Shown: positions 11,632 to 41,638 of the stretch, piece by piece
How positions within the stretch are numbered: position 1 is the stretch's first letter
Layout of the letters: each line of letters begins with the position of its first letter
Assembly (NCBI GenBank): GCA_964596545.1
Contig: CAZQUP010000005.1
Location: 12,340-76,339, forward strand
Direction of reading: 5' to 3'
Origin: an uncultured Desulfatibacillum sp.
Lineage (GTDB): Bacteria > Desulfobacterota > Desulfobacteria > Desulfobacterales > SpSt-501
Length of the DNA: 64,000 nucleotides
Notes under the pieces: generated by a model
Told to the model about the DNA's origin: nothing
What the model saw: the letters and a program-made list of their open reading frames with translations, nothing else
Databases searched by the model: none
Made by a program: the position numbers and the translations under genes

Positions 11632-11655
11632 AAAAGGGAGGAAAGGAATCCCTCA
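11629..11655 (-). terminator. Candidate intrinsic terminator after the Rieske/cyt b operon
   Basis: Minus-strand RNA AGGGA-uuccuuucc-UCCCU followed by UUUUUU. The stem is only 5 bp and overlaps the stop codon. Confidence 0.35.
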
Positions 11656-12654
11656 GCGCCTGAAGACCAAAACCAGGCTGCGCGTGGTCTTGGAGTGGTC
11701 GGCGCCGGAGTCGTCGAAAACGGCGATGGCGAAGCTGTAGCGCCGGCGGGGGTCGAAGACCACGTCGTCGTCGTGCCCGGTGAGGAGTTTGCGGCGCAAG
11801 AGAACTTTCCAGCGCCCGTCGTCATAGCGGCTTTCGGCTTTGACGTCGTAGCGGGAACCCCCCGGCCGGAGGGGCAGGCGGTAGGGGATCTCGTCTCCGG
11901 GGCGGAAGACGGCGTCGGCCGGAATCTCGACGACCTCCTCATACAGCAGCACTCCCGGCACCGCGGGGCTGCGGCCCGGACGGAGCATGTACCGCGGACG
12001 GCCGCCGTCCGTGGTCTCGTTGCGCACATCCCCCCCGGGGCCGCTATCGTTGCGGCGGCCCGTTTCGCGGTAAGAGCCGGTCGGGTTGCCGGCCACGGTG
12101 AGCCAGCCGTCGTCGGCGTAGCCGTAGGGTGCCGACCGCGCCGCTTTCCAATGCCAGAGATCGCCGCGTTCGGCGGGCGTGCGCGTGGCCAGCTTCCACT
12201 GGCTGCGCGGGGTGTCGGGCGGGCTGTGACATACGACGGCGCAGCTTCGCGAGGAAAACTCGTGAATGCGCTCGATCTCGAAGAGAAGCGCAATCCGGTC
12301 CTCGTCCCCCGGCAAATGGGTCCATTTCTCCCCATCATAGCGCCAGGTCTGTTTGACGACACTGCGGGTCGGATCGGGCCAGCTCAAGAGAAAGAAAATC
12401 TCCTCCGCGGTGTACAAAACGCGGGTTGTGACGATTTCGCGCACGTCGGCCAGCTCGAGCCGGCCCGTGACCGGTATCGCCGCGGCCGGAAACCGCGCCC
12501 AGACCGGGTCTTCCAGGCCTTGCGGCGCTTTGGGGACATAGCGTGCGGTCACGGTGAGCTGCCCGGAATCTTTCGCCGGCGGCGCGGCCGCCACCAGCGG
12601 CGCGGCCGCAAGAGCGGCGAGCAGTCCGCAAACGGTCAGCCATTTCCCGTTCAT
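11653..12654 (-). CDS. Periplasmic EB_dh-domain (ethylbenzene dehydrogenase gamma / cytochrome c-552-like) haem protein, paralog B
   Basis: Signal peptide, GDLWHWKAARS motif, and CAVVCH (C-x3-C-H) at 12226-12243. Confidence 0.7.
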   Translation of the reverse strand: MNGKWLTVCGLLAALAAAPLVAAAPPAKDSGQLTVTARYVPKAPQGLEDPVWARFPAAAIPVTGRLELADVREIVTTRVLYTAEEIFFLLSWPDPTRSVVKQTWRYDGEKWTHLPGDEDRIALLFEIERIHEFSSRSCAVVCHSPPDTPRSQWKLATRTPAERGDLWHWKAARSAPYGYADDGWLTVAGNPTGSYRETGRRNDSGPGGDVRNETTDGGRPRYMLRPGRSPAVPGVLLYEEVVEIPADAVFRPGDEIPYRLPLRPGGSRYDVKAESRYDDGRWKVLLRRKLLTGHDDDVVFDPRRRYSFAIAVFDDSGADHSKTTRSLVLVFRR

Positions 12655-12714
12655 GACCCTCTTTCCTTCTCTTTCGGGCCCCCGCGCCTCGGTTTTCCCT
12701 TGTCTTCCTCGGGC

Positions 12715-13818
12715 TCAATGCTCCGGCCGCACGAAGTGCTCGATGTAGCCTATCACGGAAAGAACGGCGATCGCGATCAACACCACTAGGGCCGCCGCCC
12801 AGACCCCGATGCGGCGCGAGGGCCGGCGGTCGGGCGAAGGGTCGAGCCAGGGCAACGCGGCGAGAAGCAGGAAGAGGCCCCCGGGGATCACCGCCGATCC
12901 GACCACGGTGAGGGGGCCTTTGAAAATCGAAACCAGCTGGTTGAGGAAAAGGACCCACCATTCCGGCCGCGGCACAAAGGAGGTGTCGGAGGGATCGGCG
13001 GGATCCCCCAAGGGCGCCGGATCGAGATAGGCCGCCGCCGACAAGGCGATCATCGCCGCAAGCAGCAGGAGCAGAAAACGGTTGAGCCCGGAGGGAAAAA
13101 GCGGGATGGGCGGGCGGGCGGGCGTCGATCCGTCCATTCTTGGCGAGAGGCCGTGGCGCGCGAGGAGATAGAGATGCAGAGCCAGGATGCCGAGCAGGGC
13201 GGCCGGAAGCAGCAAAACGTGCAGGACGTAAAAGCGGGTCAGCGTTACGATCCCCGTAAGCGCTCCCCCCCGCAGCATCTGGACCATGAAATCCCCCAGC
13301 CCGGGGATGGAGGACATGATGCTGAAGCGCACCTGGGTCGACCAGTAGCCTTTTTGATCCCAGGGCAGAAGATCTCCCGTAATGATGAAAAGCGGCATCA
13401 GAAGCAGAAAGAGAAGGCCCGATAGCCACACCGGATGCCGCGGCCGCTTGTAGGCGCCCACGACGAACGCCCGCAGGAGATGAAGCCCCATCACGACCAG
13501 AAGCAAATTCCAGGCGTAGTGGTGAACACCGCGGACGATATCGCCGCAGGGCAGGCTGAAGTGGAAATAATCGACGCTGTCGTAAGCGGTGCCGGGGACC
13601 GGGGTGTAGGAGAAGGCCATCAGAAGGCCGGAGAGAAAAAGCAGGGCGATGAGCGCAAGCTGCAAAACGCCGAAAAATCGGTGCCAGCAGACGGTTTCGG
13701 CGGGAAGCCGAGGGCGCGTGAGCCAGCAGAGCAAACCGTCCCGCGGCGGCGGCGTCCGGCCCTCTTCTTCAAGCATCACGTACGGTTCGCTCATCGCCCT
13801 GCCGTCCTGCGCCGGCAT
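12715..13818 (-). CDS. Cytochrome b (fused b6 plus subunit IV-type) of a Rieske/cyt b complex
   Basis: Haem ligand pairs H-x13-H (HYAWNLLLVVMGLH) and H-x14-H (HVLLLPAALLGILALH), plus PWDQ. The start abuts the upstream stop. Confidence 0.85.
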   Translation of the reverse strand: MPAQDGRAMSEPYVMLEEEGRTPPPRDGLLCWLTRPRLPAETVCWHRFFGVLQLALIALLFLSGLLMAFSYTPVPGTAYDSVDYFHFSLPCGDIVRGVHHYAWNLLLVVMGLHLLRAFVVGAYKRPRHPVWLSGLLFLLLMPLFIITGDLLPWDQKGYWSTQVRFSIMSSIPGLGDFMVQMLRGGALTGIVTLTRFYVLHVLLLPAALLGILALHLYLLARHGLSPRMDGSTPARPPIPLFPSGLNRFLLLLLAAMIALSAAAYLDPAPLGDPADPSDTSFVPRPEWWVLFLNQLVSIFKGPLTVVGSAVIPGGLFLLLAALPWLDPSPDRRPSRRIGVWAAALVVLIAIAVLSVIGYIEHFVRPEH

Positions 13819-14805
13819 CTATTTCTTGAATTCCAGGGTGAGCGTTTCCGAGTCGTAGGAGTCCGCGTCCCCGGAATCGTCGAAAAGCGCCATGGCGAAG
13901 TTGTATTTTTTGCGCGGGTCGAAGGCCACGTCATCCTCGTAGCCGGTGTTGAGCTTGCGCGAAAGCATCAACGTCCAGGCGCCGTCGGCCCAACGACTCA
14001 CCGCTTTGACGTCGCCGTAGGAACCTTCGGCCTTGACCGGCATCCGCGCGGTCACGACATCGCCCGGCTTGAAAACGGAGTCGTCCGTGATCTCGACCGC
14101 GTCCTCGGCGAGCAGGATGCCGTGCTTGCCCAATTTTTTGCCCGGAGCGAGCATGTAGCGGGGCTTGGATTTGTCCTCGGTCATGTTGCGCTTGTCCCCA
14201 CCCTTTCCGGCGTCGGTCCTGCGGCCGGTTTTGTCCGCGCTGAACTTGGTCAACCAGCCGTCGTCCGCATAGCCCGCAGGATCGGAGCGGGCGGCCTTCC
14301 AGTGCCAGAGATCGCCTTTTTCGGCCTCGCTCTGGGTCCCGAACTTGCCGTCTTTGGCGTTCGGGGCGCCCTGGGGAACATGGCAGGTGACGGCGCAGCC
14401 CTTGGTGGCGAAGTTGTTGATGCGGCTGATTTCGGAAAGGAGCGACAGGCGGTCTTCATCGCCGGCCTGCGGAGTCCATTTCTGACCGTCGAATTTCCAG
14501 GCGCCTTTCGTCACGCTGAGCGTGGCATCCTTCCAGGTAAACCAGAAATAGATCTCCTCATCGGTATAGATCGCCTTGGTGATGACGGAGGTTTTTTTGT
14601 TGGCGAATTTCTCCTTGCCTTCGAAGGGAACCTCCAGGGCCTTGATCTTGGCCCACTGGGGGTCATCCAGTCCCGCGGGGGCGGTCTTGGAGTAGACCGC
14701 CGTCAGCGTCTGTTTGGCGGCGCCGGTGACATCGCCGCTGAACAGCAGCGCCGCCGGGACAACCAGCAAAAGACTCAACACGGCCAAGCGTAATCGGCAG
14801 CTCAT
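13819..14805 (-). CDS. Periplasmic EB_dh-domain haem protein, paralog A
   Basis: Signal peptide, GDLWHWKAARS motif, CAVTCH (C-x3-C-H) at 14380-14397. GAAGGAGG RBS. Confidence 0.7.
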   Translation of the reverse strand: MSCRLRLAVLSLLLVVPAALLFSGDVTGAAKQTLTAVYSKTAPAGLDDPQWAKIKALEVPFEGKEKFANKKTSVITKAIYTDEEIYFWFTWKDATLSVTKGAWKFDGQKWTPQAGDEDRLSLLSEISRINNFATKGCAVTCHVPQGAPNAKDGKFGTQSEAEKGDLWHWKAARSDPAGYADDGWLTKFSADKTGRRTDAGKGGDKRNMTEDKSKPRYMLAPGKKLGKHGILLAEDAVEITDDSVFKPGDVVTARMPVKAEGSYGDVKAVSRWADGAWTLMLSRKLNTGYEDDVAFDPRKKYNFAMALFDDSGDADSYDSETLTLEFKK

Positions 14806-14833
14806 CGAGATCCTCCTTCAGGGATGTTGTCGC

Positions 14834-15409
14834 TCAACCCAGCTTGATCTGCACCAGCAGCTTTCCTTCTTCGATTTTGAACGGCAGCCGGGTTAGCGGT
14901 TTTTGCGGCGGCCCGCCGGCGGGTTTTCCCTCGGCGTCGAAAAATCCGCTGTGGCAGGGACAGAGAAACAGCTTCCGTCCGGGGTTCCAGATCACGCTGC
15001 AGGCCAGATGCGTGCAAGTGGACGACAAGACCAGCGGCCCGGAGGCGGGATCGTTCTTGGCCCAGACAAAGCCGCGCTGCGGCAGATCCTGCCAGCCGTC
15101 CTTCACGAGAAATTCAAAAGGAAGCATGGTGAAATCCACCGCGCCGAGCTGGTCGGGTTTGCCGAAATCGACCCACTTCACAACCCCTTTTCTGAGAGCG
15201 GGAATCACGACCGTGGACACGGTGGGAACGGCGAGGAGCGCGAGGCTGCCCCCGGCAACGAGCGCGGTGCCGAGGAAGGCGCGTCGTGACAGGAGACAGG
15301 AGGGATCGGGGTTTTTTTCGGAAGAATCGCGGCAAGATGTCATGGAACGATTGACCAAGGAGAAGAAATGACCGTTGCGGATCTCATCGCTATGTTTGTT
15401 AGTTGTCAT
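14834..15409 (-). CDS. Rieske (2Fe-2S) protein with Tat signal
   Basis: SRRAFLG twin-arginine motif, CTHLAC and CPCHSG cluster boxes. An alternative start at 15343 is possible. Confidence 0.85.
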
Positions 15410-15520
15410 GCCACAAAGTATATGTCAAGAAAAAATTATCGTTCCGGAAATGAATCCTTCTGAAAAAATCTCTCTTTGCGCTTGGCGACGCCGCCTAAAC
15501 GCATCCTAAGGGTCTTGACT

Positions 15521-15596: not shown

Positions 15597-15878
15597 GTGG
15601 AAAATTTCTCGAGATGCGGCGTGGCATGCTGCCAGGTCGAGGCGATCATCAGCGTGGACGATAAGGGCCAGATGGTTCTGCCCAAGGCGGTGCGCGAGCG
15701 CGCGGGCATCCGGCCCGGAGAAAAGCTCGCCTTGATCGGCTGGCAAAAAGAGGGGGGAATCTGCTGCCTCGGCCTGATCAAGGCCGAATCGCTCGCGGAG
15801 ATGGTGCAACAACTGCTCGGACCTTTGATGAAAGACATCACAGGCCCAACCGGGCCGAAGGCGGGAGACGACGGATGA
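15597..15878 (+). CDS. Cysteine-rich AbrB/MazE/SpoVT-domain protein
   Basis: GTG start. The [24 protein letters not shown] swapped-hairpin motif is flanked by C7, C11-C12 and a second vicinal CC pair. ATGA overlap with arsM. Confidence 0.6.
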
Positions 15879-16705
15879 ACGAAAAAATCAAACAACAGGT
15901 GCGCGAAGGCTACGGACGGATCGCCCGGGGGGAGGATTTCTCCTGCTGCGGCGGGGGGTCTTCCTGCTGCGGCGGAGGCCTCTCGAGCCGCGGGATCGCC
16001 GAAAAGATCGGCTATTCCCCGGCGGATCTGGAGCAGGTGCCGGAGGGGGCGAACCTGGGACTGGGCTGCGGCAACCCGGTGGCTCTGGCCGCTCTTGCCG
16101 AAGGTCAGACCGTCCTCGATTTGGGATCCGGCGCAGGATTCGATTGCTTCCTCGCCGCACGCGCGGTCGGGCCGACCGGACGCGTGATCGGCGTCGATAT
16201 GACCCCGGAGATGATCGCCAAAGCCCGCACGAACGCGGAGCGGGCGAAAGCCCGCAACGTCGAGTTTCGGCTGGGCGAGATCGAGGCGCTGCCGGTCGCC
16301 GACGGCACGATCGATGTGATCCTCTCGAACTGCGTCATCAACCTCTCCCCCGATAAAGCCCGGGTTTTCGCCGAGGCCTACCGGGTGCTCAAGCCCGGAG
16401 GGGTGCTCGCCGTCTCGGACATCGTTCTTAAAAAGCCGCTGCCGCCGGCGCTCGCCTCCTCCGTTTCCGCCTACGTCGGTTGCATCGCCGGTGCGAGCCT
16501 CAAGGAAGACTATCTCGCCCTGCTCGAGGCCGCGGGTTTCGCCGCGGTGGAGGTCGTCGAGGAAACTCCGTTTTACGCGATGGAAGAAGCCGCCGATCCT
16601 CTTTTAGAGAAAATCCGCGAAGAGGCGAGGCTCTCCAAACGGGAACTGGAGGCGGCGGCGCAATCCGTGGTGAGTCTCAAGCTGCGGGCGCGGAAAGCTC
16701 CTTGA
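15875..16705 (+). CDS. arsM: Arsenite S-adenosylmethionine methyltransferase
   Basis: N-terminal CCGG..CCGG cysteines, [13 protein letters not shown] motif, and the characteristic [10 protein letters not shown] cysteine. Confidence 0.85.
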
Positions 16706-17144
16706 AGAGGAAAGCCGCGCTTCGGGGACAAAGGGTGGAAAACTCGCTCGTCCGCCGGATCGCCTCCGGGGCCTCCTCCCGCGCGATCCCGCGGTATCCC
16801 CGGGAGCGGAAGAAGGTCTCCGCCGTCGTCGTGAGCAGATAGAGGCGCGCGACTCCCTGCCCGCGGGCGTGTCTTTCCGCCGCGGCGAGCAGCCGGGCGC
16901 CCAGCCCGCATCCCCGGTACCGGGAGTCGACCGCCAACGAACGCAGGAGCGCCGTTTTCCCGCAGATCTCCAGTCCCACCGTCCCCAAGAGGGTCCTCCC
17001 TTCGAAAGCGCCGAGAAACCGGGGGCCCGGATCTGCGGCGAGATCCGCCGCCGGCAGACCGCAGGACTCGAGCAGCCGACGGATCGCATCCCGATCCGAT
17101 GCCGGACGGATCGTCGCGGTTCCGGCCTTGTCCGCCGACTTCAT
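16677..17144 (-). CDS. arsN2: Arsenic-resistance GNAT N-acetyltransferase (ArsN2-like)
   Basis: 155 aa with IRPA...LLRSLAV...RG.GLG...[11 protein letters not shown]...CP.SA pattern. The track ORF is over-extended upstream. ATGA overlap with the upstream gene. Confidence 0.65.
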
Positions 17145-17746
17145 GTCCCGTCCCGCAGCAGGTTCTTCTTGAGCAGCTTCAGCCCTTCCTCGCGTGCCTG
17201 GAGGACCCGTTTCAACTCCACGCCGCCGAGCTCGGGCCGCCGCAGGATCTTTTCCGTGAGCGCCCGACGGTAGCGCAGGTACTCGTCTTTTTCCGAGATC
17301 GCCGCCGGAACTTCCTCCACGTGGAGGAAGTCTTCGATCGAGCGGTTTTTGCCGTTGCGGTTGCCCTCGGTCAGGTCCACCCGGAACCGGCCGTGGACGA
17401 GAAAACAATGCACCATCGGAATGTAGGGCAGGCCGAACTCCTCGAGCAGTCTGCGGGTTCCGCTCACGATTTCCTCGGTCATGGCGTAGATGCCGATGTG
17501 TTTGCGGATGTCGAGTCCCTGCTCCTGAGCGAGGGTCCCGATGACGGCGTGTTTGGTGGTGCAGGTGCCCATGCTTTCTTTGAAGAGGATCATCAGGTCG
17601 TCGCGATCGGAGTTGTAGCCGTAGGGAAGCTCGTGGACCCAGCGGCAAGCGTCGTGGAAACGGCGAAGGCTCCGCCGGAGAAACTCTTCGCTCACGGGCC
17701 CGACCGGTGTGAGCTCACAGTCCGGAAACACGGTGTACGGTTGCAT
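17141..17746 (-). CDS. Conserved hypothetical protein, possible transglutaminase-like Cys-His-Asp fold
   Basis: 201 aa from MQPYTVFPD. GTCTTKH ... MVHCFLVHGRFRVDLT has the spacing of a Cys/His/Asp triad. Co-oriented and coupled with arsN2. Confidence 0.35.
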   Translation of the reverse strand: MQPYTVFPDCELTPVGPVSEEFLRRSLRRFHDACRWVHELPYGYNSDRDDLMILFKESMGTCTTKHAVIGTLAQEQGLDIRKHIGIYAMTEEIVSGTRRLLEEFGLPYIPMVHCFLVHGRFRVDLTEGNRNGKNRSIEDFLHVEEVPAAISEKDEYLRYRRALTEKILRRPELGGVELKRVLQAREEGLKLLKKNLLRDGT

Positions 17747-17846
17747 GGGAATCCCTCTAGGGAGCCGCCCTGCGGCGGGTTGAGGTTCAAGCGGATGATA
17801 AGGCCGCATCGTTAAGAAACGATGAGACCCGCGGTCTTTTTCCTTC

Positions 17847-18953
17847 TTACTGCAGGGCGTTGAAGATCCAGCCGACGGCCAGGATTCCCAGACCGACGAT
17901 GCCGACGAAGGAGCCGAGCAGCCGCGGCTTGAGCACACGGCGCAGAATCAGGATCTCGGGAAGCGACAGCGCGATCACGCTCATCATGAAGGAAAGCACC
18001 GTTCCGAGCGCCGCCCCCTTGCCGAGAAGCGCCTGGACGATCGGGATCATCCCGGCGGCGTTGGAATATATGGGAATCCCGATCCCGACGGCCAGCGGCA
18101 CCGACCACCAGGCTTCCTTCCCCATGATCGCGGCGAGCACGGCCTCCGGCACGTAGCCGTGGATGAACGCCCCCACCGCAATGCCGAAGACGATCCATTT
18201 CCAGACCCGGCCGACGACGCTTCGAACGGCGTCGAACCCCGCCTGGAGTCGCTCCCGAAACGATCCGGGGCCGGTGGCGATCTCCACCTCGTTACGCCGC
18301 ACGGCGGTGACCCACGGCTCGATATGCCGTTCGAGCCGCAGTCGCCCGAGCAGGAAGCCGCCGGCAATGGCGATCGCCATGCCGGTTCCGGCGTAGACCA
18401 GCGCGATTTTCCAACCGAGAAGCCCGTAAAGCAGCAAAAGCGCCACCTCGTTCACCATCGGGGCGGCGATCAGAAACGAAAAGGTGACGCCCAGCGGAAT
18501 GCCTGCGGTGACAAAGCCGATGAACAGCGGGACCGCCGAGCAGGAGCAGAAGGGCGTGGCGACCCCGAGCAGGGCGGCGAGCACGTTTCCCACGGCCTCT
18601 CGCCGGCCGGCGAGGATGCGGCGCGTGCGCTCGGCGGTGAAGTAGGTGTTCAGGATGCCCACGGCGAAGACCACGACCGTCAGCAGCATCAACACCTTCG
18701 GCGTGCCGTAGAGGAAGAACTCGACTGCCGCGGCGAAATGCGAGCCGGCCTCCAGGCCGAACACATCGTAAGCCAGGGCATGCGCCGCCTGGGGGAGCGC
18801 TCGGTAAACCGTCCAACCGGCGCCGAGCACGACGAGGAACAGCACAGCCTCCCAAAGTCGGATCTTCCGCGAAACGACGTCGCTTGTCGGTGCCGCGGGC
18901 GTACCGGCCGTGCCGCAGCAGGAGGAAAACTCGGAAATCGGTTTCAATGACAT
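17847..18953 (-). CDS. UPF0718/ArsP-like permease (putative organoarsenical efflux)
   Basis: Polytopic. TPFCSCSAVPLF vicinal-cysteine motif and a Cys-rich N-terminus (SSCCGTAG). Confidence 0.65.
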   Translation of the reverse strand: MSLKPISEFSSCCGTAGTPAAPTSDVVSRKIRLWEAVLFLVVLGAGWTVYRALPQAAHALAYDVFGLEAGSHFAAAVEFFLYGTPKVLMLLTVVVFAVGILNTYFTAERTRRILAGRREAVGNVLAALLGVATPFCSCSAVPLFIGFVTAGIPLGVTFSFLIAAPMVNEVALLLLYGLLGWKIALVYAGTGMAIAIAGGFLLGRLRLERHIEPWVTAVRRNEVEIATGPGSFRERLQAGFDAVRSVVGRVWKWIVFGIAVGAFIHGYVPEAVLAAIMGKEAWWSVPLAVGIGIPIYSNAAGMIPIVQALLGKGAALGTVLSFMMSVIALSLPEILILRRVLKPRLLGSFVGIVGLGILAVGWIFNALQ

Positions 18954-19018
18954 GGGGACTCCTTAACGAATCGCTCCAAAAAGAGCGCTGGCTTGCGGGT
19001 CCGGGGGGTGGCTATTGC

Positions 19019-20461
19019 TCAACCGGCAGGCTTTTCCTTCCCCTCCCGGGGTTGTCGCGCCATGGCCGACCGGAGGGCCTCGCGGAGGATTTCGATCGGG
19101 TGGCGGACGGGATAGGAGAGAAGCTGCTCGAACTGCAGCCTGCAGCTCAGGCAATCGGTTACGATCGCCTGAGGATGAATCGCTTGGATGCGGCGCATCA
19201 AGCGTTCGCCGAGCGCGATCGAGGCCGCGTGAAAATCCTGTTTGAACCCCATCACGCCGGCCAGGCCGCAGCAGTAGAGGTTTCCCTCGAGAGCGGCCGT
19301 CTCGAGTTCCGGCACCCGCCGCAGCAGCTCAAGGTAAGGCCGGCCGAACTGCTGCTCCCGCTGATGGCAGGGCGGATAGTAGAGCGCCTGCAACGAGACG
19401 GGGGCAAAGTTGACCGCTCCTTCGCCCTCCCTGACACGCCGCAGGAGATATTCGCCGACATCGAAGACTTTCTCGGCGACGGCGATGCGCCGCACAGGGT
19501 CGAGCCCCGAGAAATAACCGTCGTCTTTAAGGATGTTTTTGAAGATGATGCGGTCGAAGACCTCCATCCCGCCCACAGGACGCCCCCCCGCGCGGGCGCG
19601 CGCCGGCACCTGGATGAAACGCGCGTCGGATCCCACGCGCCGCTGATAGGCTTCGGAAAAATAAGCCCCTTCGGCGATAAGCCCGCGCAGCATGAAACTG
19701 CAGGTCGGGCAGGAGCAGAGAATGTCGTATCCCTCCTCCACCGCCGCGGAAAGGACAGTGAGGTTTTGGGATGCAGCCCGCAGGGTGAACTCTCGGTCGC
19801 CCTCGAGGAAGGAAGGCATGCCGCAGCAGGCAAGGGGGGGGCAGAAAACGGACAAGCCCCAATCCTGCAAAACTTCGACCGAGGAGCGAGCGACCTCCGG
19901 GAAAAGGTAGGTCGCCGTGCAGCCCGCGAAATAGAGGACCCCCCTTCCAGGCGGAGCCTGCGGTTTTCGGTCAAGCCGGCGTTTCCGCACCCAGGCCCGG
20001 AAATCCTCCCGGGGGAAAGTCGGCAGCCGGCGCTCGGGATGAATCCCGAGCCACCGCTTCAAACGCCTTCCCGTCCGCGGAGAGGAGAGCAGCCGGTCGG
20101 TCAGGCGAGGGAAAGCGCCGCAGATTCTCCCCAGCCGCGCGACATCTTCGATCAGGCGCACGCGGGGGGGGAGCCCGTCGCGGGAGACGAAAGCGGTCTT
20201 GGCGCGGATAATGTCCGAGCGGATGTTGGGGCAGGGACAAAGGGCGCAGAAATTGCATTTCTCAACGAGCTCGCGCAGTTCTTCGGAGGAGGGCTGGCGG
20301 CCGGTCTCCATTTCCCGGTCATAGAGCCGGTAGAGTTCGGGGAAAAAAAGACAGGCTTCGTCCAGAATCGGGCGGCAGCAATCGCAGTCGGCGCAGTCGC
20401 GGATGATCCGCCGCGCGATCTCTTCCGGCGTATCCGCTGCGGGGAAGTCCTTCGCCTTCAT
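19019..20461 (-). CDS. HdrD/GlpC-like Fe-S oxidoreductase with two CCG domains
   Basis: N-terminal CADCDCC...C and CNFCALCPC ferredoxin-like motifs. CCG motifs ACCGMP and YCCGLAG. ATG at 20461 (MKAKDF). Confidence 0.75.
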   Translation of the reverse strand: MKAKDFPAADTPEEIARRIIRDCADCDCCRPILDEACLFFPELYRLYDREMETGRQPSSEELRELVEKCNFCALCPCPNIRSDIIRAKTAFVSRDGLPPRVRLIEDVARLGRICGAFPRLTDRLLSSPRTGRRLKRWLGIHPERRLPTFPREDFRAWVRKRRLDRKPQAPPGRGVLYFAGCTATYLFPEVARSSVEVLQDWGLSVFCPPLACCGMPSFLEGDREFTLRAASQNLTVLSAAVEEGYDILCSCPTCSFMLRGLIAEGAYFSEAYQRRVGSDARFIQVPARARAGGRPVGGMEVFDRIIFKNILKDDGYFSGLDPVRRIAVAEKVFDVGEYLLRRVREGEGAVNFAPVSLQALYYPPCHQREQQFGRPYLELLRRVPELETAALEGNLYCCGLAGVMGFKQDFHAASIALGERLMRRIQAIHPQAIVTDCLSCRLQFEQLLSYPVRHPIEILREALRSAMARQPREGKEKPAG

Positions 20462-20708
20462 GATGCCTTCAGGTTTTCCGGCCTGCGGCGACGCACGAAA
20501 AGCCGCCAGCAGCCGCAATCTCCCATGGACACGGGAAGTATCCTTCCTTCCGGTGGAATCTCTTCGAGAAGCCGGCGCTCGACGAACGGCTCGACGCCGG
20601 CGGCGTCCCATCGTTGGTAGGATCGGTTGTCGACGGGCTTGCCGATCCGACCGATCGGGCCATCGACCCCGGGTCATCAGCCGATGACGGTCTTCCCGGA
20701 AAAAACGC

Positions 20709-21197
20709 TCAGGATCCCTCCGCGGTCGGCGACGAACGCTTGCTGTTCGCTAGAAAGCTCGATGCTCCAGGATCGTTCCATCGCTTCCCCCCTTCTTCGG
20801 CCTTGCGCTTCGCCGACCCGCTGCGGCCGGCGTCGGAGCGGGCCGGGCGCCGACGAACCGCAGGGGCGTCCGGATGCACGACGTCCGTCGACCCTTCGCG
20901 TTTCCGCAGGCTTGACGGAGCATCCTGCAGGCCGAAGCGGACGAAGGAAAGCGCCCGTCTGACCGCAGGCGCGGCTTGCCGCCCGATCCGCCGGTAGTAC
21001 ATCCAGCGGCCCCGCTTCTCCACCGCGACCAAACCCGCGCGCCGCAGAATGCTCATGTGCTGGGAGACCGTGGAAGGCGCCAAGCGAAGCAGCTGCGCCA
21101 GCTCGCACGCACAAAGTTCTCTCTTCTCAAGAGCGAACAGCACGCGCAGCCGGTTTTCATCGGCGAGCGCCCGAAGAAGATGAACGAAATCCTTCAT
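20709..21197 (-). CDS. arsR: ArsR/SmtB family repressor, As(III)-type ELCACEL site
   Basis: LADENRLRVLFAL..ELCACEL...STVSQHMSILRRAGLV. Long basic C-terminal tail. Confidence 0.8.
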   Translation of the reverse strand: MKDFVHLLRALADENRLRVLFALEKRELCACELAQLLRLAPSTVSQHMSILRRAGLVAVEKRGRWMYYRRIGRQAAPAVRRALSFVRFGLQDAPSSLRKREGSTDVVHPDAPAVRRRPARSDAGRSGSAKRKAEEGGKRWNDPGASSFLANSKRSSPTAEGS

Positions 21198-21260
21198 CCC
21201 GTCGTCCTGCTCGATCCCTCCCCTTGCGGAAACCTGCTTGTCCCCCGGGACCGGCCCCAC

Positions 21261-22355
21261 TCAGGGCTTACAACTCAGGTAGCACACGCCCGCCGGCGTC
21301 TCGACCGCGTAAGGAAAGTATTTTTTGCGGAAAGCGAGCGCCACGTTGACCAGGCTGATCAGCACCGGCACCTCGAGCAAAGGTCCGATGACGGTGGCAA
21401 AGGCCTGCCCCGAATGGATACCGAAGATGGCCACGGCCACCGCGATGGCCAGTTCGAAGTCGTTGCTGCCGGCGGTGAACGCTACCGTGGTGGTCTGGGC
21501 GTAGTTGGACTTGATTTTGTAAGCGATGAAAAAGGTCACAAACCACATCAGGAAAAAATAGACGGCCATCGGCAAAGCGACGATCAACACATCGAGCGGC
21601 GCCTGGATGATCTTGTCGCCCTGGAGCGAGAACATGACGATGATGGTGAAGAGCAGGGCGACCAGGGTGATCGGGGAAATTTTGGGGATAAAGCGGGTTT
21701 CATACCATTGTCTGCCCTTGGCCTTGAGAAGAGAAACCCGGGTCACCACCCCGCCGATGAAGGGAATGCCCAGATAGATGAAAACCGTCTTGGCGGCTTC
21801 CCCCATGGAGATGCTCACATCCAGCCCCTTCGCCAGGCCGAGCCAGTTCAGCCCGAGGGTAATGAAGAGGTAGATCATCGGCGCGTAGAAAAGCACCTGA
21901 AAGACGGCGTTGAAGGCGACGAGCCCCACCGCCAGTTCGCGGTCGCCTTCCGCCAGTTCGTTCCAGACGATCACCATGGCGATGCAGCGGGCGAGGCCGA
22001 CCAGGATGACGCCGATCATGTATTCGGGGTGATGGCGCAAAAACACGACGGCCAGGACGAACATCACCACCGGCCCGATGACCCAATTCTGCAACAAGGA
22101 AATGACCAGCAGCCTTTTGTGCTGCAGCACCTTGCCCATCTCTTCGTATTTCACTTTCGCCAGCGGAGGGTACATCATCAAAATCAGGCCGACGGCGATG
22201 GGAATCGAGGTGGCCCCGACCTGCATGCCGGAAATCAGCTCCGTGGCCGCCGGGAGGTAATATCCCATCAGGATCCCCGTCGCCATGGCGAGGAAAATCC
22301 ACAGCGTGAGAAAGCGGTCCAGAAAGCTCAGGCCCTTGATGTTCGTCGCTTCCAT
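21261..22355 (-). CDS. acr3: ACR3-family arsenite efflux transporter
   Basis: [24 protein letters not shown] and other ACR3 hallmarks; 364 aa. Confidence 0.9.
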
Positions 22356-22405
22356 CGCGGCCTCCTTTCCAATCCGACGCGCCCGCGAGGCTTTTCCACC
22401 GGCGC

Positions 22406-22434
22406 GACGAATATTTCGTCGGGCGACGAAATAT
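22406..22434 (-). promoter_or_regulatory. Candidate ArsR operator upstream of acr3
   Basis: GACGAA-tat-TTCGTC perfect-arm dyad (22406-22420), followed 4 nt later by a third GACGAAATAT half-site. Lies 50-80 nt upstream of the acr3 ATG. Confidence 0.5.
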
Positions 22435-22548
22435 AGAGAAGCCGAAAAATTCTGTCAAGCGGCGGCAGCGCGCGAAAAGACAACGAGGCGGCGTGCAGAA
22501 CTCTGACCGAATGGCCGAAGGATATCGAGGCCGGCCCGCAACGGGGCC

Positions 22549-23481
22549 TCAGCGCCGGGGAATGCGGCGTTTGAGCCGCTCAATCGCCTCCGCCCAACGG
22601 CCCCGCCTCAGGATGCCCTGCAGGGCCGGCAGGCGCCCGCGGGTCGCCCGCTCGCCTGCGGCGATCAACTCCCGGACGGAAGCGAAGTCCGTCCAATGAA
22701 AGCCTCCCAGCTCGGGCTCGATGAGCACATCGCAGGCTCGTCGCCCGGCAGCGCGCAGATGCAGCATCATGACCTCGGTGGCGCGCTGAAGAACATCGAT
22801 CCCGTCGCGCAGGGCCTGACCGGCCTCCAGGCGGGAGCCAACGTCGACTCCGACCACCGTTTCGGCGCCGAGCTCTCGGGCGACTCCTGCAGGCAGCGCC
22901 TCCAGCAGCGCCCCATCCGCCAGCAGCATCCCCTGATGGGCGACGGGCGGCATGAGACCGGGAAGCGCGCTGCTCGCCATCACCGCGCGATGGAGCGACC
23001 CCTCCCGCAGAATCACCCGGCGCCCCGCGACCAGATCGACAGCGGTGGCGGCAAAGGGGATCCGCAAATCGGCGAAGGTGAGATCCGGCACCAGGCCCGA
23101 GAGGCACTCCCGGACCTCGCGTTCGGAAAGAAGCGACCCCCGCAGAAGAGCGACGTTGAGCAGGTATTCCTTGGCCGCGAAATTTCCGAGGCGCTCGAGC
23201 ACGCCCCCGCGGATTCCGGCTGCCGGCCGGCTCGGCTTCAGCCGACGAACCACTCCGGCCGCGACGCCGTCGGGGGCGAAGACCCGCTGCGCGGTCTGTT
23301 TCAAAACGTCCGCGTCGGGGCACAAGGCGTAGGCCGCACCGATCACCGCGCCGATGCTGCTGCCGACGATCAAGTCGGGGATTCGCCCTTCCTGCTCCAG
23401 GACGGCAAGCACGCCGATGTGGGCAAGCCCACGCGCTCCGCCCCCACTCAGGGCCAGCCCGAAGCGCAGCATCGCGGCCAT
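22549..23481 (-). CDS. Patatin-like phospholipase
   Basis: GGGARG oxyanion motif, GSSIG (GxSxG) and a DGA catalytic Asp motif. Confidence 0.85.
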   Translation of the reverse strand: MAAMLRFGLALSGGGARGLAHIGVLAVLEQEGRIPDLIVGSSIGAVIGAAYALCPDADVLKQTAQRVFAPDGVAAGVVRRLKPSRPAAGIRGGVLERLGNFAAKEYLLNVALLRGSLLSEREVRECLSGLVPDLTFADLRIPFAATAVDLVAGRRVILREGSLHRAVMASSALPGLMPPVAHQGMLLADGALLEALPAGVARELGAETVVGVDVGSRLEAGQALRDGIDVLQRATEVMMLHLRAAGRRACDVLIEPELGGFHWTDFASVRELIAAGERATRGRLPALQGILRRGRWAEAIERLKRRIPRR

Positions 23482-23491
23482 GGCTTCCCTC

Positions 23492-24460
23492 TTAGGGCCG
23501 GGGAGGTAAAGGATCCGACGGCACGACCCGATCGGCGAGGGATGTCAAGCGCTGCATCCGTCGATAGAAAACGACCGCGGTCGCCATCTGAAAAACAAAC
23601 GCCGGTGCCACGGCGGACTGCGCCAGCTCCGGCAGACTCAACGCCGCCACGGCTACGGCGATGGGAAGGTTTTTCATACCGGCGGAAAAGGTAAGCGCGA
23701 TGTTTTTCGCCGGACTCAGAAACGTACGCCCGATCGCCCAGGCCGCAACAAAAAGAACCGGAAAGACGGCGGCCAGCGCACCCGCCAGCGGGCCGAGCAC
23801 GGCCAGATTCGCGCGCAGCAGGGGTACGGAGGTGTTCACGGCCATGAACATCAGGATCACCGCCGCCGCTCCCGATAGGGCCGGCATCCAGGGAACCCAC
23901 GGCGTCATGTCGCGCTTGCACTCCAGGATTTCGCGCACCAGCAGCCCGACCAGAAGCGGCACGAGGACGCCTTCCAAGACGCCGGCAAAGAGCATCCCGG
24001 CATTCACCGCGAGATAGGCCCCGGCGAAAAGCTGCATCAACAGGGGGATGAGAAAGGGGGCGGCGATCATCGTCGCGGCGTTGATGACGGTGGCGAGCGG
24101 AACATCCCCTTTGAGCAGCCCCGTCCAGACGATGGCCATGCCCGCGCACGGCACCGCACCGATCAAGATCAAGCCGGCAGCCAAATCCGGTGCGTCCGCC
24201 AACCACAACACGGACAAAACCCAGCAGATCAGGGGGGCGGCCGCAAAATTCAGGGCCAGGCCCAAGACGAAGGCCTTGGTTTCTTTCAGCGCCCGCCCGA
24301 GGCTGCGCAGCCTCAAGGAGAACCCCATGGCCCCGATCATGAGGAAAACCAGGCCGAAGGCGAAACGACGGATGAAGCGGCCCGGGGCGGGGCTCCATCC
24401 ACCGCTCACAAGGCCGAGCAAAAGCGCAGCGACGATCAACTGGGAATACCGCCCGCGCAC
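23492..24460 (-). CDS. Bile acid:sodium symporter (BASS/SBF) family transporter
   Basis: Polytopic. IGAVPCAGMAIVWT and PFLIPLL motifs typical of the SBF/ACR3 superfamily. Confidence 0.7.
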   Translation of the reverse strand: MRGRYSQLIVAALLLGLVSGGWSPAPGRFIRRFAFGLVFLMIGAMGFSLRLRSLGRALKETKAFVLGLALNFAAAPLICWVLSVLWLADAPDLAAGLILIGAVPCAGMAIVWTGLLKGDVPLATVINAATMIAAPFLIPLLMQLFAGAYLAVNAGMLFAGVLEGVLVPLLVGLLVREILECKRDMTPWVPWMPALSGAAAVILMFMAVNTSVPLLRANLAVLGPLAGALAAVFPVLFVAAWAIGRTFLSPAKNIALTFSAGMKNLPIAVAVAALSLPELAQSAVAPAFVFQMATAVVFYRRMQRLTSLADRVVPSDPLPPRP

Positions 24461-33558: not shown

Positions 33559-35301
33559 ATGATGGCGCCAAAAACGCCTCCGCCGAGTCCGGATCCTTCA
33601 AGGGAGAAACGGCTGTTTCTTCAGCCGCTTGCGGTCGTCGCGATTTCCGTCGTCATCAGCCTTCTTTTCTGGGCGACAGCGATGTTGACCAGCCGCCGGC
33701 TCGAGGAGGCGCTCCTCGAGGGTGTCCATGCGCGCGCGCGCTCCATCCTTCAGGGGATCGAACTTCTGGCCGAACGCAAGTTCGAGCGCTGGGAGAAGCT
33801 GTTTCAGGCGGGAGGAGCCGACCCGTTCGCTCTGGATCCTTCGTTTGAAGAAGTCTTTGCCCTGCGGGAGGTGCTGGTTTCCGATCTGCTCTCCCGGGCG
33901 ATGGAACTGGATGGTGCCCTTTACGCCAGCTCGAGTCCGAAAGAGGTCCTCGCCGAAGCGCTCGCTTCGCGGGAGATTTCCGCCCTGGCGGTTTTCGATG
34001 CGACGGGCCGAGCCCTTCACATCAGCGGCCGTCTGCCCACGGCGTTTCCCCTCGAGCTTTTCGAGCTTCTGCCGCCGGGGGAAGAAATCGCCGTGAGGCT
34101 CGAGGCGGAGGAACCCTTCGCCCATGGCTATGTCGGGCTGCGAAGGCGCACCGCCGGCGGGGCGGTATTTCTTTTTTTCGAGCGCGAGGGGATCCGGCGC
34201 TGGACGCTCCGGCGGGCGCTCCGTGAGGCGGCCGAAGAGGTCGGCTGGCGAGAGGAGGTCGCCCATCTGGTTCTCTTCGACGACGGCGGCCGCACGATCG
34301 TCGCGTTGGGCGACACCCCGGAAAATCGGCCATCGGTCCCCCCGCCCGCGGAAGGGGAAATGCGCCGCCTGCCCCAAAAAGAAGGCGATCTCCTCGAGGC
34401 GGCGCGTCGCATCCGTTTCGAGGGCGAAAGTCCGTTTCTCGCGCGGATCGGGCTGCGCGCCCGAACCCTCGATGAACTGCTCCGCGACCATCGCCGCAGC
34501 GTCTATCTTTCCGCGGCGCTGATGGTCGGCCTGGGGCTGCTTTTCATCCTGCTGCTCACATGGAATCAGAACCGTCACCTGCGTCGGATCGAGGCGCTGC
34601 AACGACGCCTGCACCAGACCGAACGCCTCTCCTCCCTCGGAAAACTCGCCGCCGCCGTCGCCCACGAAATCCGAAACCCCCTGAACGCCGTCAGTCTCGC
34701 CATTCAGCGCCTGCAACGCGAAGCCGAGACAGGAAGAGGAAACCCGGCGGAAACGGCAAAGCTCCTGCAAACCGTCCGCAGTGAAATCCGGCGGCTCGAC
34801 CGCATCGTCGAGGATTTCCTCATGCTGTCGCGCGCCGGCCGGATCGAGCTTCGCCCCGTCTCCCTGCGCGCGCTAATCGAATCGCTGCTCACCCTTCTCG
34901 GTGAGGAGGCCGGCGCGCGCGGGGTGACCCTGGAATCCGTCTTTCCGGAGACGGATCTCGTCCTGACCGGTGATGAAAACCGTTTGCGGCAGGCGTTGCT
35001 CAATTTAATGAAAAACGCGCTTGAGGCCTTGCCTCAAGGCGGCACGGTTTGCGTCGCCCTTCGGAGTCGCCCGCCCGGGGAGGCCGAGATCGAAATCCGC
35101 GACTCGGGAGTCGGCATCCCGCAGGCGAGCCTGGCCGCGATCTTCGACCCGGATTACACGACCAAGCCCGGCGGCTTGGGTTTGGGGCTTCCCATCGCCC
35201 TGCAGATCATCCGCGCCCATGGGGGCGAGCTCGCGGTGCACAGCACCCCCGGAGATGGTACGGTTTTCACGCTCCGGCTGCCTCTTGCGGGAGGAAACTA
35301 G
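33559..35301 (+). CDS. Sensor histidine kinase (ZraS/NtrB-like)
   Basis: Two TM segments flanking a periplasmic domain, HEIRNPLN H-box, N, G1 (DSGVGI) and G2 (GGLGLGL) boxes. Confidence 0.85.
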   Translation: MMAPKTPPPSPDPSREKRLFLQPLAVVAISVVISLLFWATAMLTSRRLEEALLEGVHARARSILQGIELLAERKFERWEKLFQAGGADPFALDPSFEEVFALREVLVSDLLSRAMELDGALYASSSPKEVLAEALASREISALAVFDATGRALHISGRLPTAFPLELFELLPPGEEIAVRLEAEEPFAHGYVGLRRRTAGGAVFLFFEREGIRRWTLRRALREAAEEVGWREEVAHLVLFDDGGRTIVALGDTPENRPSVPPPAEGEMRRLPQKEGDLLEAARRIRFEGESPFLARIGLRARTLDELLRDHRRSVYLSAALMVGLGLLFILLLTWNQNRHLRRIEALQRRLHQTERLSSLGKLAAAVAHEIRNPLNAVSLAIQRLQREAETGRGNPAETAKLLQTVRSEIRRLDRIVEDFLMLSRAGRIELRPVSLRALIESLLTLLGEEAGARGVTLESVFPETDLVLTGDENRLRQALLNLMKNALEALPQGGTVCVALRSRPPGEAEIEIRDSGVGIPQASLAAIFDPDYTTKPGGLGLGLPIALQIIRAHGGELAVHSTPGDGTVFTLRLPLAGGN

Positions 35302-35315
35302 GGAGAATCTCATCC

Positions 35316-36677
<1,362 letters not shown>

Positions 36678-36693
36678 GCGGCGGGCTTTCGGG

Positions 36694-38049
36694 TTACTCC
36701 CTGTCGCAAGAGTTGGGGGAGAGGCCGTATTTGCGCATGCGGCGCCAGAGCGTCGTGCGGCTGATTCCGAGGGCACGCGCCGCGGCGAGGCGATTTCCCC
36801 CAAAGCCGGCAAGCACGGTGCGGATCTTCTCGGCCTGAGCCGCGCTCTCCGGAGACGGGCAACAACGGCTTTCCGCGACCTCTTCGCGGATTTCCTGCGG
36901 CAGGTGTTCCGGCCGGATCAGCTTTTCGCGGCAGGTGACAAACGCGTACTCGATGATGTTTTCGAGCTCGCGGATATTTCCGGGGAAAGGGTAGTCGAGA
37001 AGGATGTTCATCACTTCCGGGGCCACTCCCTGGATCTCCCGGCCCTTGATCATATTGAACCGGCGCACAACGTGGTCAACCAAGAGGGGAATGTCCTCCC
37101 GGCGCTCGCGCAGCGGCGGAAGGCTCACCTTGACGACGTTCAGGCGGTAATAGAGATCTTCCCGGAACCGCCCCTCGCGCACCTGGGCCTTGAGGTCCAG
37201 GTTGGAGGCCGTCACCAGCCGAAAGTCGGAGCGCAACGGTCGATTCGACCCCAGGGGAGTGAACACTCCGTCTTCGAGCACACGCAGCAGGTCGGCCTGG
37301 AACGCCGCCGAGGTGCTGCCGATTTCGTCCAGAAACAGGGTTCCGCGGTCAGCGGCCAGGATCCTGCCGGACTTGTCGCGCACGGCCCCCGTAAAGGCGC
37401 CCTTGGCGTGGCCGAAGAGCTCGGATTCGAGGAGCGTATCCGGCAAAGCGGCGCAGTTCACGGCGACGAAGGGGCCCTCGCTCCGCCGGCTGAGGCCGTG
37501 GATGGCCCGGGCGATCAGCTCCTTTCCCGAACCGGTCGGTCCTTCGATCAAAACCGCACTGTCGCTCATCGCGATGTCCGGCAACAGAGCGAGCAGGGCG
37601 CGTATCCGCGGGTGGCGGCCGACAATGTCCTCCGGAGCAAAGCGTCGATCGATCTGGCGGCGAAGCTGCTCGATCTCGGTGAGGTCGCGGAGCGTCTCGA
37701 CGGCCCCTAGGATCCGGCCGTTTTCGTCTTTCAGAGGGGCCATATTGAGGCGCACCATGACCCGTCCCCCGCCCTTGGCGATCAGGACGACGCGCTGGTC
37801 GGCGGGGGGGCCTTCGCCCTGCAGGCAGTCATCGAGGGGGCAGCGGCGGGCGCACAGATCGGCCCGCAAAACGTCGAAGCATTTGCGTCCCACGGCCTCG
37901 GCGACCGAAAAACCGGTGATCCGCTCGGCGGCGGGATTGAGGTAGGTGACCCGCTTTTGCGCATCGATCGTGACCACGCCCTCGCTCACGCTTTCGACGA
38001 TCGTGCAGCAGTGGGTGGGCGATAGGGTCAGGAGCCGGAAACGCGCCAA
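36694..38049 (-). CDS. PAS-domain sigma-54-dependent transcriptional activator
   Basis: TTG start 5 nt after AAAGGAG. PAS domain with a CARRCPLDDC cysteine motif, GPTGSGKE, GAFTGA, Fis HTH. Confidence 0.8.
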   Translation of the reverse strand: MARFRLLTLSPTHCCTIVESVSEGVVTIDAQKRVTYLNPAAERITGFSVAEAVGRKCFDVLRADLCARRCPLDDCLQGEGPPADQRVVLIAKGGGRVMVRLNMAPLKDENGRILGAVETLRDLTEIEQLRRQIDRRFAPEDIVGRHPRIRALLALLPDIAMSDSAVLIEGPTGSGKELIARAIHGLSRRSEGPFVAVNCAALPDTLLESELFGHAKGAFTGAVRDKSGRILAADRGTLFLDEIGSTSAAFQADLLRVLEDGVFTPLGSNRPLRSDFRLVTASNLDLKAQVREGRFREDLYYRLNVVKVSLPPLRERREDIPLLVDHVVRRFNMIKGREIQGVAPEVMNILLDYPFPGNIRELENIIEYAFVTCREKLIRPEHLPQEIREEVAESRCCPSPESAAQAEKIRTVLAGFGGNRLAAARALGISRTTLWRRMRKYGLSPNSCDRE

Positions 38050-38132
38050 GGCGACTCCTTTCGCGCACGGAGCGCGGCTTCGCCGCCAACCGGCGGCGAA
38101 GGCCGGGCTCAACGCCTTGCCTGCGCTTGCCC

Positions 38133-39422: not shown

Positions 39423-40202
39423 TCACTTCGTCTTGCCGGTTTTTGCGCCGGCAGGTGCCGCGGGAAGGCCGAGCCTGCGCCGCAGCTCGGCCTCCTCGAG
39501 AAGTCCGGAATGATAGCGCGCATCCGGGAAAATGTAGGTCGGCGTTCCGCTCACCCCTTTCCGGGAGAGAAGCTCGCGGGTTTCCTCGACCACGCGCTCG
39601 CCCTCGGCACACTGGTTTTCGGAGAGGTAGCCGTTGTGGAAATCATCCAAGGATTTCTTGTCGCAGATCACGGCGATCGACTGCGGCCGCGAATCCTTGT
39701 AGGAGTCCAGCGGGAAAAAGAGGATCCGCGCCGTGATCTCCCCCTGGGCGGCAAGCTTCTTGAGCGTCTCCTCCCCTTTTTTGCAATAGGGGCAGTGGGG
39801 ATCGGTGGCGTAATAGAGGGTCTTTGGGCCGTCCCCCAGGCGGATCGCGGTGAGCGCCTCGAGCCGCTTCATCTCTTCGGTCGTGAAAAAATTCACCTGC
39901 TCGATCTTCTCGCGGGTCAGATTGCGGCCGCTTTTCGCCTCATAGAGCTGCCCCATAAGGAGATAATCGCCCGAGGGGCCGGTGTAGAAAATGTGGACCC
40001 GCTGATTCAGCCGCACCTGGATCTCGCAGAGGTTCTCGAACTCCGTCGGCTGAAGCGCAACCAGGCTCCGGTCCGGGGCCTCGAAGCGCGAGATCACCTG
40101 CTGGATCTTCTCGCGCGGCGGGCACTGCGCGTCGGCCTTTCCCGCAAAAAGCGCGATCGAAGCGATCATCCCGGCCACCGCAAGGGCTTGGCTTCGTTTC
40201 AC
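39423..40202 (-). CDS. DsbC/DsbG-like periplasmic thiol:disulfide isomerase
   Basis: Signal peptide, N-terminal dimerisation domain, CPYC active site. Confidence 0.8.
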   Translation of the reverse strand: MKRSQALAVAGMIASIALFAGKADAQCPPREKIQQVISRFEAPDRSLVALQPTEFENLCEIQVRLNQRVHIFYTGPSGDYLLMGQLYEAKSGRNLTREKIEQVNFFTTEEMKRLEALTAIRLGDGPKTLYYATDPHCPYCKKGEETLKKLAAQGEITARILFFPLDSYKDSRPQSIAVICDKKSLDDFHNGYLSENQCAEGERVVEETRELLSRKGVSGTPTYIFPDARYHSGLLEEAELRRRLGLPAAPAGAKTGKTK

Positions 40203-40259
40203 GGCCGTTCTCCTTTCTTCGACCCCATCGTCGGCTGCCCCGTCTCTTCCGCGCCCGAC

Positions 40260-40799: not shown

Positions 40800-40827
40800 G
40801 AAATCGTTTTCTGCTCCTTGCTCGAAT

Positions 40828-41634: not shown

Positions 41635-41638
41635 TTTG

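Follow-up and report, generated by a model that had tools for sequence, protein, structure and literature searches.

Gene content and organisation of the operon

A 64,000-nucleotide (nt) stretch of contig CAZQUP010000005.1 from an uncultured Desulfatibacillum sp. (hereafter the window) was found to carry a Rieske/cytochrome b operon in which two paralogous EB_dh proteins, A and B, stand where a homologue of cytochrome c1, cytochrome f or a class I cytochrome c would usually serve as the third redox subunit. Its four co-directional open reading frames (ORFs) span positions 11653-15409 of the minus strand with intergenic gaps of ~0-60 nt, and encode, in order, a Rieske protein with a twin-arginine translocation (Tat) signal, protein A, a cytochrome b and protein B (Table 1). 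Given that the genes bordering this unit on both sides lie on the opposite strand, the operon is limited to these four genes. An earlier note on this DNA had described the same ORFs, gene order and coordinates, and all of these, together with the positions of the two cysteine motifs discussed below, agreed with our recheck. Also borne out by inspection of ORFs and Pfam matches was its report of an operon devoid of cytochrome c1, cytochrome f or multihaem c genes; nor was a class I mono- or dihaem cytochrome c gene detected within the operon. In public gene calls, the cytochrome b gene starts at 13794 (359 residues) instead of 13818 (367 residues). The terminator previously placed after protein B is present as a hairpin (11654-11638), but holds only three G-C pairs, and terminator-like sites in the region are not above chance (7 observed, against 4.9 +/- 2.5 in shuffled sequence).

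The EB_dh proteins and their C-x3-C-H motif

As had been proposed, A and B belong to the EB_dh haem family: both match the Pfam model PF09459 (2e-50 and 3e-45, respectively), their AlphaFold models are confident (predicted local distance difference test, pLDDT, scores of 91.7 and 89.0), and the solved folds nearest to the protein A model are NxrC (7b04_C) and EbdC (2ivf_C; Foldseek E-values of 1e-11 to 1e-10), followed by CBM9 modules. Likewise upheld was their description as signal-peptide-bearing paralogues of about 330 residues that share the segment GDLWHWKAARS. They are 328 and 333 residues long, with 50% identity across 305 aligned positions, and both carry Sec-type N-terminal signal peptides with neither a twin-arginine motif nor a lipobox. 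Lipoprotein anchoring was considered for both and rejected, a lipobox occurring in only 2 of ~70 sequences per paralogue. A conserved site in protein A, VTG↓AAKQ at residues 26-30 (14716-14730), was predicted as its signal-peptidase site; this stretch (VTG↓AAKQT) is unusually well kept among A orthologues of 60-80% overall identity.

Alignment of the paralogues places CAVTCH of A against CAVVCH of B. The shared C-x3-C-H motif, whose conservation in orthologues had been made a test of the earlier proposal, is retained in 120 of 120 close homologues and, among representatives sharing <=50% identity, in 165 of 168 instances of the domain, in which it invariably lies 20-30 residues upstream of the WHWK strand; no CxxCH was found in protein A or its close homologues. 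The motif had also been called unusual, and it is indeed real and conserved, but its retention in 165 of 168 distant instances indicates that it marks a very large EB_dh subfamily and is by no means confined to this operon. When the PDB was searched with protein A by sequence and by profile, only NxrC and EbdC were returned, and these aligned only outside the motif-carrying helix, which has no aligned counterpart in either protein. No solved structure of the C-x3-C-H class was recovered by sequence or profile searches with protein A, or by fold search with its model. Scores of the two proteins against TIGR03477, the gamma subunit family of type II dimethyl sulfoxide (DMSO) reductases, were 32.6 and 40.3 bits, compared with a cut-off of 169.85. 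Maturation of c-type cytochromes requires Sec-type export, and A and B share with these cytochromes both Sec export and a C-x(2-4)-C-H motif. The literature commonly includes C-x3-C-H among haem c motifs. Taken at the level of sequence, A and B probably each bind haem covalently via C-x3-C-H, with the motif histidine as the proximal ligand.

The Rieske and cytochrome b subunits

The Rieske protein matches PF00355 and possesses the CxH...CxxH boxes and Tat export of its counterparts in the Rieske/cytochrome b superfamily. The boxes read C132-T-H134-L-A-C137 and C150-P-C152-H153-S-G-F-F, providing the cluster ligands C132/H134 and C150/H153 and the disulfide cysteines C137/C152, and the Tat signal was detected above cut-off at residues 40-66 (NCBIfam TAT_signal_seq), with the twin arginines of the signal/anchor at 42-43. 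The two potential-tuning positions are occupied by Gly and Phe, a pair that Baymann et al. describe as a signature predicting a low-potential cluster (<+200 mV), and which is found in haloarchaeal Nar-linked Rieske proteins (PMC3509893). This low-potential signature fits a menaquinol oxidase.

For the cytochrome b, Pfam searches returned Cytochrom_B_N_2, Cytochrome_B (8.5e-37) and, weakly, Cytochrom_B_C. The best NCBIfam matches, all below threshold, were b6 (164 bits against a cut-off of 325), ExtP/ExtQ and subunit IV, and the best matches among solved sequences were b6 chains (1e-35 to 1e-33). The protein comprises about seven hydrophobic or transmembrane helices, corresponding to a four-helix b6-like part and a subunit-IV-like part. 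Two histidine pairs, H99/H113 (x13) and H200/H215 (x14), are conserved in 64 orthologues and fall on helices B and D, as in the superfamily at large, where they hold haems bL and bH. Conserved in the same orthologues is the Qo motif PEWW (residues ~284-287), which keeps the Pro, Glu and Trp of P[D/E]W[Y/F] and deviates from the usual forms, PEWY and PDWY, in having Trp as its fourth residue; this variant is not mentioned in the text of a published survey of Qo motifs. An additional haem c(n) was considered and rejected, since FFGV aligns with CLGG of the solved b6 chains and Cys44, close by, is not maintained among orthologues; with neither the CxGG cysteine nor a conserved substitute, a third haem in this subunit is unlikely. 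The b6-type H-x14-H spacing given in the earlier note is present, but the likeness to b6 is mixed, the protein being fused, lacking the CxGG cysteine and having PEWW in place of PEWY. Unsplit seven-helix cytochromes b have already been noted among delta-proteobacteria in phylogenies (PMC3509893).

Distribution and genomic context

Protein A is 100% identical to its counterpart on contig CALIUY010000016.1, from an uncultured Desulfobacterales MAG (metagenome-assembled genome), and ENA assembly ERZ6863929 likewise matches the window. When each GTDB species was represented by a single genome, 77 species-level loci were identified. All derive from MAGs or other assemblies of uncultured organisms, and nearly all are labelled Desulfobacterota, with labels including Desulfobacterales, Syntrophobacterales, Desulfarculaceae, Desulfatibacillum, Desulfonema, Desulfobacula and an Olavius symbiont; no cultured host was found among the 77 GTDB loci or among 10 protein clusters. 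Mapping of the window proteins onto these loci revealed all four genes together in 54 of the 77, with two distinct gene orders: that of the window (Rieske, A, cytochrome b, B) in 35 loci, and a rearranged form (Rieske, A, B, cytochrome b) in 19. The remaining loci are mostly versions cut by contig ends, and three of them (L037, L050 and L067) lack B though the contig continues.

Flanking regions vary among the loci. All-against-all clustering of flank ORFs identified only one widely recurrent neighbour, a HAMP-HisKA kinase with an OmpR-type regulator (23/77); ArsM lies beside the operon in five close relatives and in no other locus. No recurrent reductase, oxidase, molybdoenzyme, additional cytochrome or haem-lyase gene was found among the flanks of the 77 loci, nor did any of these loci carry genes for a molybdenum (Mo) alpha subunit or an iron-sulfur (FeS) beta subunit within or next to the operon. 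The idea of a partner enzyme or dedicated haem lyase encoded beside the operon was rejected on these grounds, the clustering having returned only the two-component system and ArsM.

Other members of the C-x3-C-H EB_dh family

The wider EB_dh family comprises 725 clusters at 90% identity (E <=1e-5) and 1,172 clusters at 50% identity (E <=1e-3), and C-x3-C-H EB_dh genes were identified in a variety of gene contexts. At locus L086, a single EB_dh gene follows genes for Rieske, b6 and subunit IV. In two Desulfobacteraceae MAGs, a second, more distant cluster lies directly upstream of the main operon: one (L074:1374-3910) is a Rieske-b6-subunit IV-EB_dh cluster whose EB_dh protein is ~41% identical to A, and in the other (L075:40-2106) the contig begins within the cytochrome b gene, such that no Rieske gene is visible. 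A Dehalococcoidia MAG (L088) was found to possess an EB_dh gene after Rieske, cytochrome b and class I cytochrome c genes. On a contig of JGI sample 3300072015 (P0141), the EB_dh gene accompanies a Mo-oxidoreductase/FeS/NrfD/cytochrome c set, making this the second kind of quinone-reactive complex seen with the domain. Since EB_dh genes follow such Rieske/b6, Rieske/cytochrome b/c and Mo/FeS/NrfD sets, the domain recurs as a periplasmic partner of quinone-reactive complexes.

Also identified were a C-x3-C-H EB_dh gene standing alone beside a two-component system (L089), and proteins that carry the domain at their N-terminus, namely histidine kinases with PAS or GAF domains and a PAS protein (P0169, P0253 and P0155). 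These N-terminal modules are presumably periplasmic and suggest a class of haem-based redox or gas sensors. Three extracellular-type proteins (P0134, P0136 and P0145) contain three to four tandem EB_dh domains, each with C-x3-C-H, and also carry PKD, type IX secretion system (T9SS) sorting-tail or planctomycete cytochrome c domains. Together, these contexts show that the C-x3-C-H EB_dh domain serves generally, in the periplasm or outside the cell, as a module for redox reactions or redox sensing, and that it has repeatedly been joined to quinone-reactive complexes.

Haem ligands and divergence of A and B

In EbdC and NxrC, haem b is bound non-covalently through Met and Lys ligands (M108/K201 and M155/K305, respectively). 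Comparison of 70 A orthologues with 67 B orthologues revealed Phe in A and Leu in B at the position aligned with the Met ligand, such that the Met is absent from both. The C-terminal loop aligning within one residue of K201/K305 reads D/N-S-Tyr in A (Tyr in 97%) and His-S-Lys in B (His and Lys each 99% conserved), the Lys thus being retained in B only and Tyr being found in A. Across the C-x3-C-H family, the Met- and His/Lys-aligned positions vary freely, and all four combinations of presence and absence occur. Because these positions drift while C-x3-C-H is invariant, the motif histidine is the only universal candidate ligand, the pattern expected if these were c-type cytochromes whose sixth ligand varies. 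As pure speculation, and by likeness to cytochrome f, the mature N-terminal amine of A might ligate its haem.

The A gene always lies directly after the Rieske gene. A is also the paralogue retained at the three loci in which B is missing, and its Tyr loop is common to the single EB_dh protein of L086 and to P0123-type proteins, including the EB_dh protein of L088. From this sharing of the loop and the retention of A without B, we infer that A would be the core Rieske partner, equivalent to cytochrome c1 or f, and that B would contribute the second, distal haem of a periplasmic chain. The differing ligation of B would be expected to give its haem a potential different from that of A.

Comparison with known Rieske/cytochrome b complexes and EB_dh proteins

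Within the freely readable full-text literature, neither this combination of genes nor an EB_dh cytochrome with C-x3-C-H was found to have been described. The statement of the earlier note that no complex of this composition had been characterised therefore holds for the literature covered, but must be qualified by a partial precedent in haloarchaea. Reviews describe the third subunit of Rieske/cytochrome b complexes as the least conserved, and extra subunits as common.

The closest precedent is the haloarchaeal Rieske/cytochrome b-Nar cluster, whose periplasmic haem protein we take to be a member of the EbdC/SerC gamma-subunit family. Like the window operon, this cluster (NarB/NarC) combines a cytochrome b with a Gly/Phe Rieske protein and has no cytochrome c gene, a periplasmic b-type cytochrome having been proposed as the shuttle to NarGH (PMC3509893). 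In contrast to its b-type haem protein feeding a co-encoded molybdoenzyme, pNarGH (PMC3509893), the window operon, from a bacterial (Desulfobacterota) host, encodes two C-x3-C-H paralogues and a fused b6-like seven-helix cytochrome b, with no molybdoenzyme in the operon at any of the 77 loci.

The cytochrome b6f complex shares with the window operon the H-x14-H spacing of helix D and a seven-helix architecture of b6 plus subunit IV. However, the window protein is fused instead of split, has FFGV for CxGG and PEWW as its Qo motif, and is accompanied by no cytochrome f, itself a beta-rich c-type cytochrome unrelated to c1; NCBIfam scores for b6 and PetC are also far below cut-offs. EbdC/NxrC/SerC-type gamma subunits resemble A and B in their PF09459 domain, beta-sandwich fold and role as periplasmic monohaem electron-transfer modules. 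They differ in binding haem b non-covalently via Met/Lys and in sitting on alpha and beta subunits, whereas A and B lack the Met, have an added C-x3-C-H helix, fall far below the TIGR03477 cut-off and are encoded with Rieske and cytochrome b partners and without alpha or beta genes.

A functional likeness, two periplasmic haem domains in series, links the operon to the dihaem-c Rieske/cytochrome b complexes of actinobacteria (bcc), epsilonproteobacteria and heliobacteria. In these, class I cytochrome c domains are fused in one membrane-anchored polypeptide on a menaquinol-oxidising Rieske/cytochrome b core, in contrast to the two separate EB_dh-fold proteins of the window. SoxLN-CbsAB of Sulfolobales is a further Rieske/cytochrome b analogue in which an extracytoplasmic monohaem b-type cytochrome, CbsA, stands in place of c1; it differs in being archaeal, in its haem b and in its PPWF Qo motif, and no sequence link between this system and A or B was detected in the searches run. 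FoxC, encoded among the archaeal fox iron-oxidation genes, is presumably CbsA-like. It has been modelled with a fold like that of the ethylbenzene dehydrogenase (EBDH) gamma subunit.

Proposed electron flow and alternative explanations

Rieske/cytochrome b complexes are central proton-motive engines of respiration and photosynthesis, and their haem-bearing third subunit has been reinvented several times, as c1, f and dihaem c. The conservation of the four genes, their domains and their ligands support the earlier proposal of a Rieske/cytochrome b complex with an atypical periplasmic electron module. On balance, we consider it probable that the operon encodes a menaquinol-oxidising Q-cycle complex that passes electrons via two EB_dh c-type haems to a periplasmic acceptor. 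The four products would assemble into one complex in which the periplasmic haem subunit (c1, f or dihaem c) is replaced by two Sec-exported monohaem paralogues of EB_dh/DOMON fold. Quinol would be oxidised at a Qo site formed by the PEWW loop and the Rieske protein; one electron would cross the membrane via haems bL and bH to the Qi site, and the other would pass from the Rieske cluster to the haem of A, then to that of B and on to the periplasmic acceptor. Menaquinone is the likely substrate, in view of the Gly/Phe signature of the Rieske protein and of what is generally known about quinones in delta-proteobacteria.

Several observations weigh against this interpretation. None of the 77 loci has a gene for an acceptor or partner enzyme close to the operon, and every homologue found is known from MAG or metagenome sequence alone. 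Unlike c1 and f, A and B would have no membrane anchor if their signal peptides are cleaved, and charge complementarity between the two proteins was not found. Further, the Met present in many relatives is missing from both A and B, and the His is missing from A as well, such that either haem, or both, may have only five ligands and be something other than a simple relay.

The lack of a nearby acceptor would also suit a complex operating in the opposite direction, in which electrons enter at the EB_dh haems from a donor in the periplasm or outside the cell and a reverse Q cycle, driven by the proton-motive force, reduces menaquinone. Such a cycle has been proposed for the bc-type complex clustered with p-cresol methylhydroxylase in Geobacter metallireducens, and the usual role of EbdC/NxrC-type EB_dh subunits is to lead electrons away from an oxidising enzyme in the periplasm. 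However, a donor enzyme is likewise encoded nearby in none of the 77 loci, the Qo glutamate of PEWW is intact and so are the two b haems, as they are in complexes that run forwards, and the low-potential Rieske signature suits menaquinol oxidation; we therefore regard electron entry as unlikely. The haems of A and B might also be bound non-covalently as haem b, with the two cysteines forming a structural disulfide or another metal site. This would accord with the Met/Lys-ligated haem b of NxrC and EbdC, the nearest solved structures, with the Lys of B that aligns within one residue of their Lys ligand, and with the annotation of Nitrospina EB_dh proteins as haem b domains. Nevertheless, the Phe and Leu at the Met-aligned position, the invariance of Cys, Cys and His at fixed spacing while the b-type ligand positions drift, the motif helix without aligned counterpart in EbdC/NxrC, and TIGR03477 scores of 33-40 bits against a cut-off of 170 render it rather improbable. 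Simple adjacency of four functionally separate genes, for which the three loci without B could be cited, would be a very remote explanation for a co-linear set on one strand with gaps of ~0-60 nt, bounded by opposite-strand genes, that is conserved in 54 of 77 loci with changing flanks and survives permutation of gene order.

The absence from A of both usual distal ligands, with only Tyr remaining, and the Phe/Leu at the Met position of A and B raise the prospect that the EB_dh pair is catalytic or binds a ligand (O2, H2O2, NO or nitrite), making the operon a Q-cycle-coupled quinol:X reductase. This would be in keeping with the use of the same domain as the periplasmic input of histidine kinases and of a PAS protein, where a role in sensing a ligand or redox state is implied, with the lack of a separate terminal enzyme encoded nearby in the 77 loci, and with the adjoining two-component system in 23 of these, which suggests induced expression. 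Conversely, Tyr317 or the mature N-terminus could fill the coordination of the haem in A, making an open site conjectural, and a series of two paralogous haem domains is reminiscent of the dihaem relays found in other bc complexes; we give such a reductase only a small chance of being correct. We attach similarly little weight to a bolder proposal, that A and B are founding, experimentally tractable members of a structurally uncharacterised c-type class, a DOMON/EB_dh beta-sandwich bearing C-x3-C-H, in which the haem of A, open or ligated by Tyr or the N-terminal amine, would react with a small periplasmic oxidant. If true, relatives of sulfate reducers would gain a Q-cycle-coupled, energy-conserving quinol:X reductase.

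Should A and B instead relay electrons from a menaquinol-oxidising complex as favoured above, the EB_dh-fold C-x3-C-H subunit would constitute a further independent solution for the third subunit of Rieske/cytochrome b complexes. This might in turn provide a function and an experimental handle for a very large unstudied haem-domain family (the 1,172 clusters at 50% identity), and point to an uncharted quinol-oxidising branch in the electron transport of the environmentally abundant Desulfobacterota.

Other genes in the window

An arsenic-resistance-type cluster (15597-24460) lies divergently upstream of the operon (Table 1), and a molybdopterin oxidoreductase gene (1102-residue ORF) occurs at 55232-63380, followed by FmdE, MoCF-domain, 4Fe-4S and CCG (HdrB-like) genes. 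A convergent MoeA gene was also identified in the latter region, which is ~40 kb from the operon with no evident link. As the flanks are not conserved, a connection of the operon to either the arsenic-resistance genes or this distant molybdoenzyme is unsupported.

Table 1. Positions of the operon, its sequence features and neighbouring genes in the window.
Feature	Position	Strand	Length	Remarks
Rieske [2Fe-2S] subunit	14834-15409	-	191 aa	PF00355
EB_dh protein A	13819-14805	-	328 aa	PF09459
Cytochrome b, fused (b6-like + subunit-IV-like)	12715-13818	-	367 aa	
EB_dh protein B	11653-12654	-	333 aa	PF09459
CAVTCH of protein A (C137, C141, H142)	14380-14397	-		Predicted covalent haem site and proximal His
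CAVVCH of protein B (C138, C142, H143)	12226-12243	-		
Tyr317 of protein A	13855-13857	-		Ligand-loop residue
His320-Ser-Lys322 of protein B	11689-11697	-		Candidate distal haem ligands
Sigma-70-like promoter match upstream of Rieske gene	15435-15464	-		TTCAGA-18-GATAAT, 9/12; weak, consensus only
Weak terminator-like hairpin + T-run	11638-11654	-		Directly past protein B stop codon
AbrB/MazE-like gene	15597-15878			
ArsM-like methyltransferase	15875-16705			
ArsP permease	17847-18953			
CCG-domain protein	~19019-20677			
ArsR-type HTH (helix-turn-helix)	~20709-21260			
SBF/Acr3-type carrier (first of two)	21261-22355			
SBF/Acr3-type carrier (second of two)	23492-24460			

Elsewhere in the window, a DsbC-like thiol-disulfide isomerase is encoded near a MauE/DUF1573 fusion protein (39423-43042), a region flanked by two sigma-54 activators (35049-38649).

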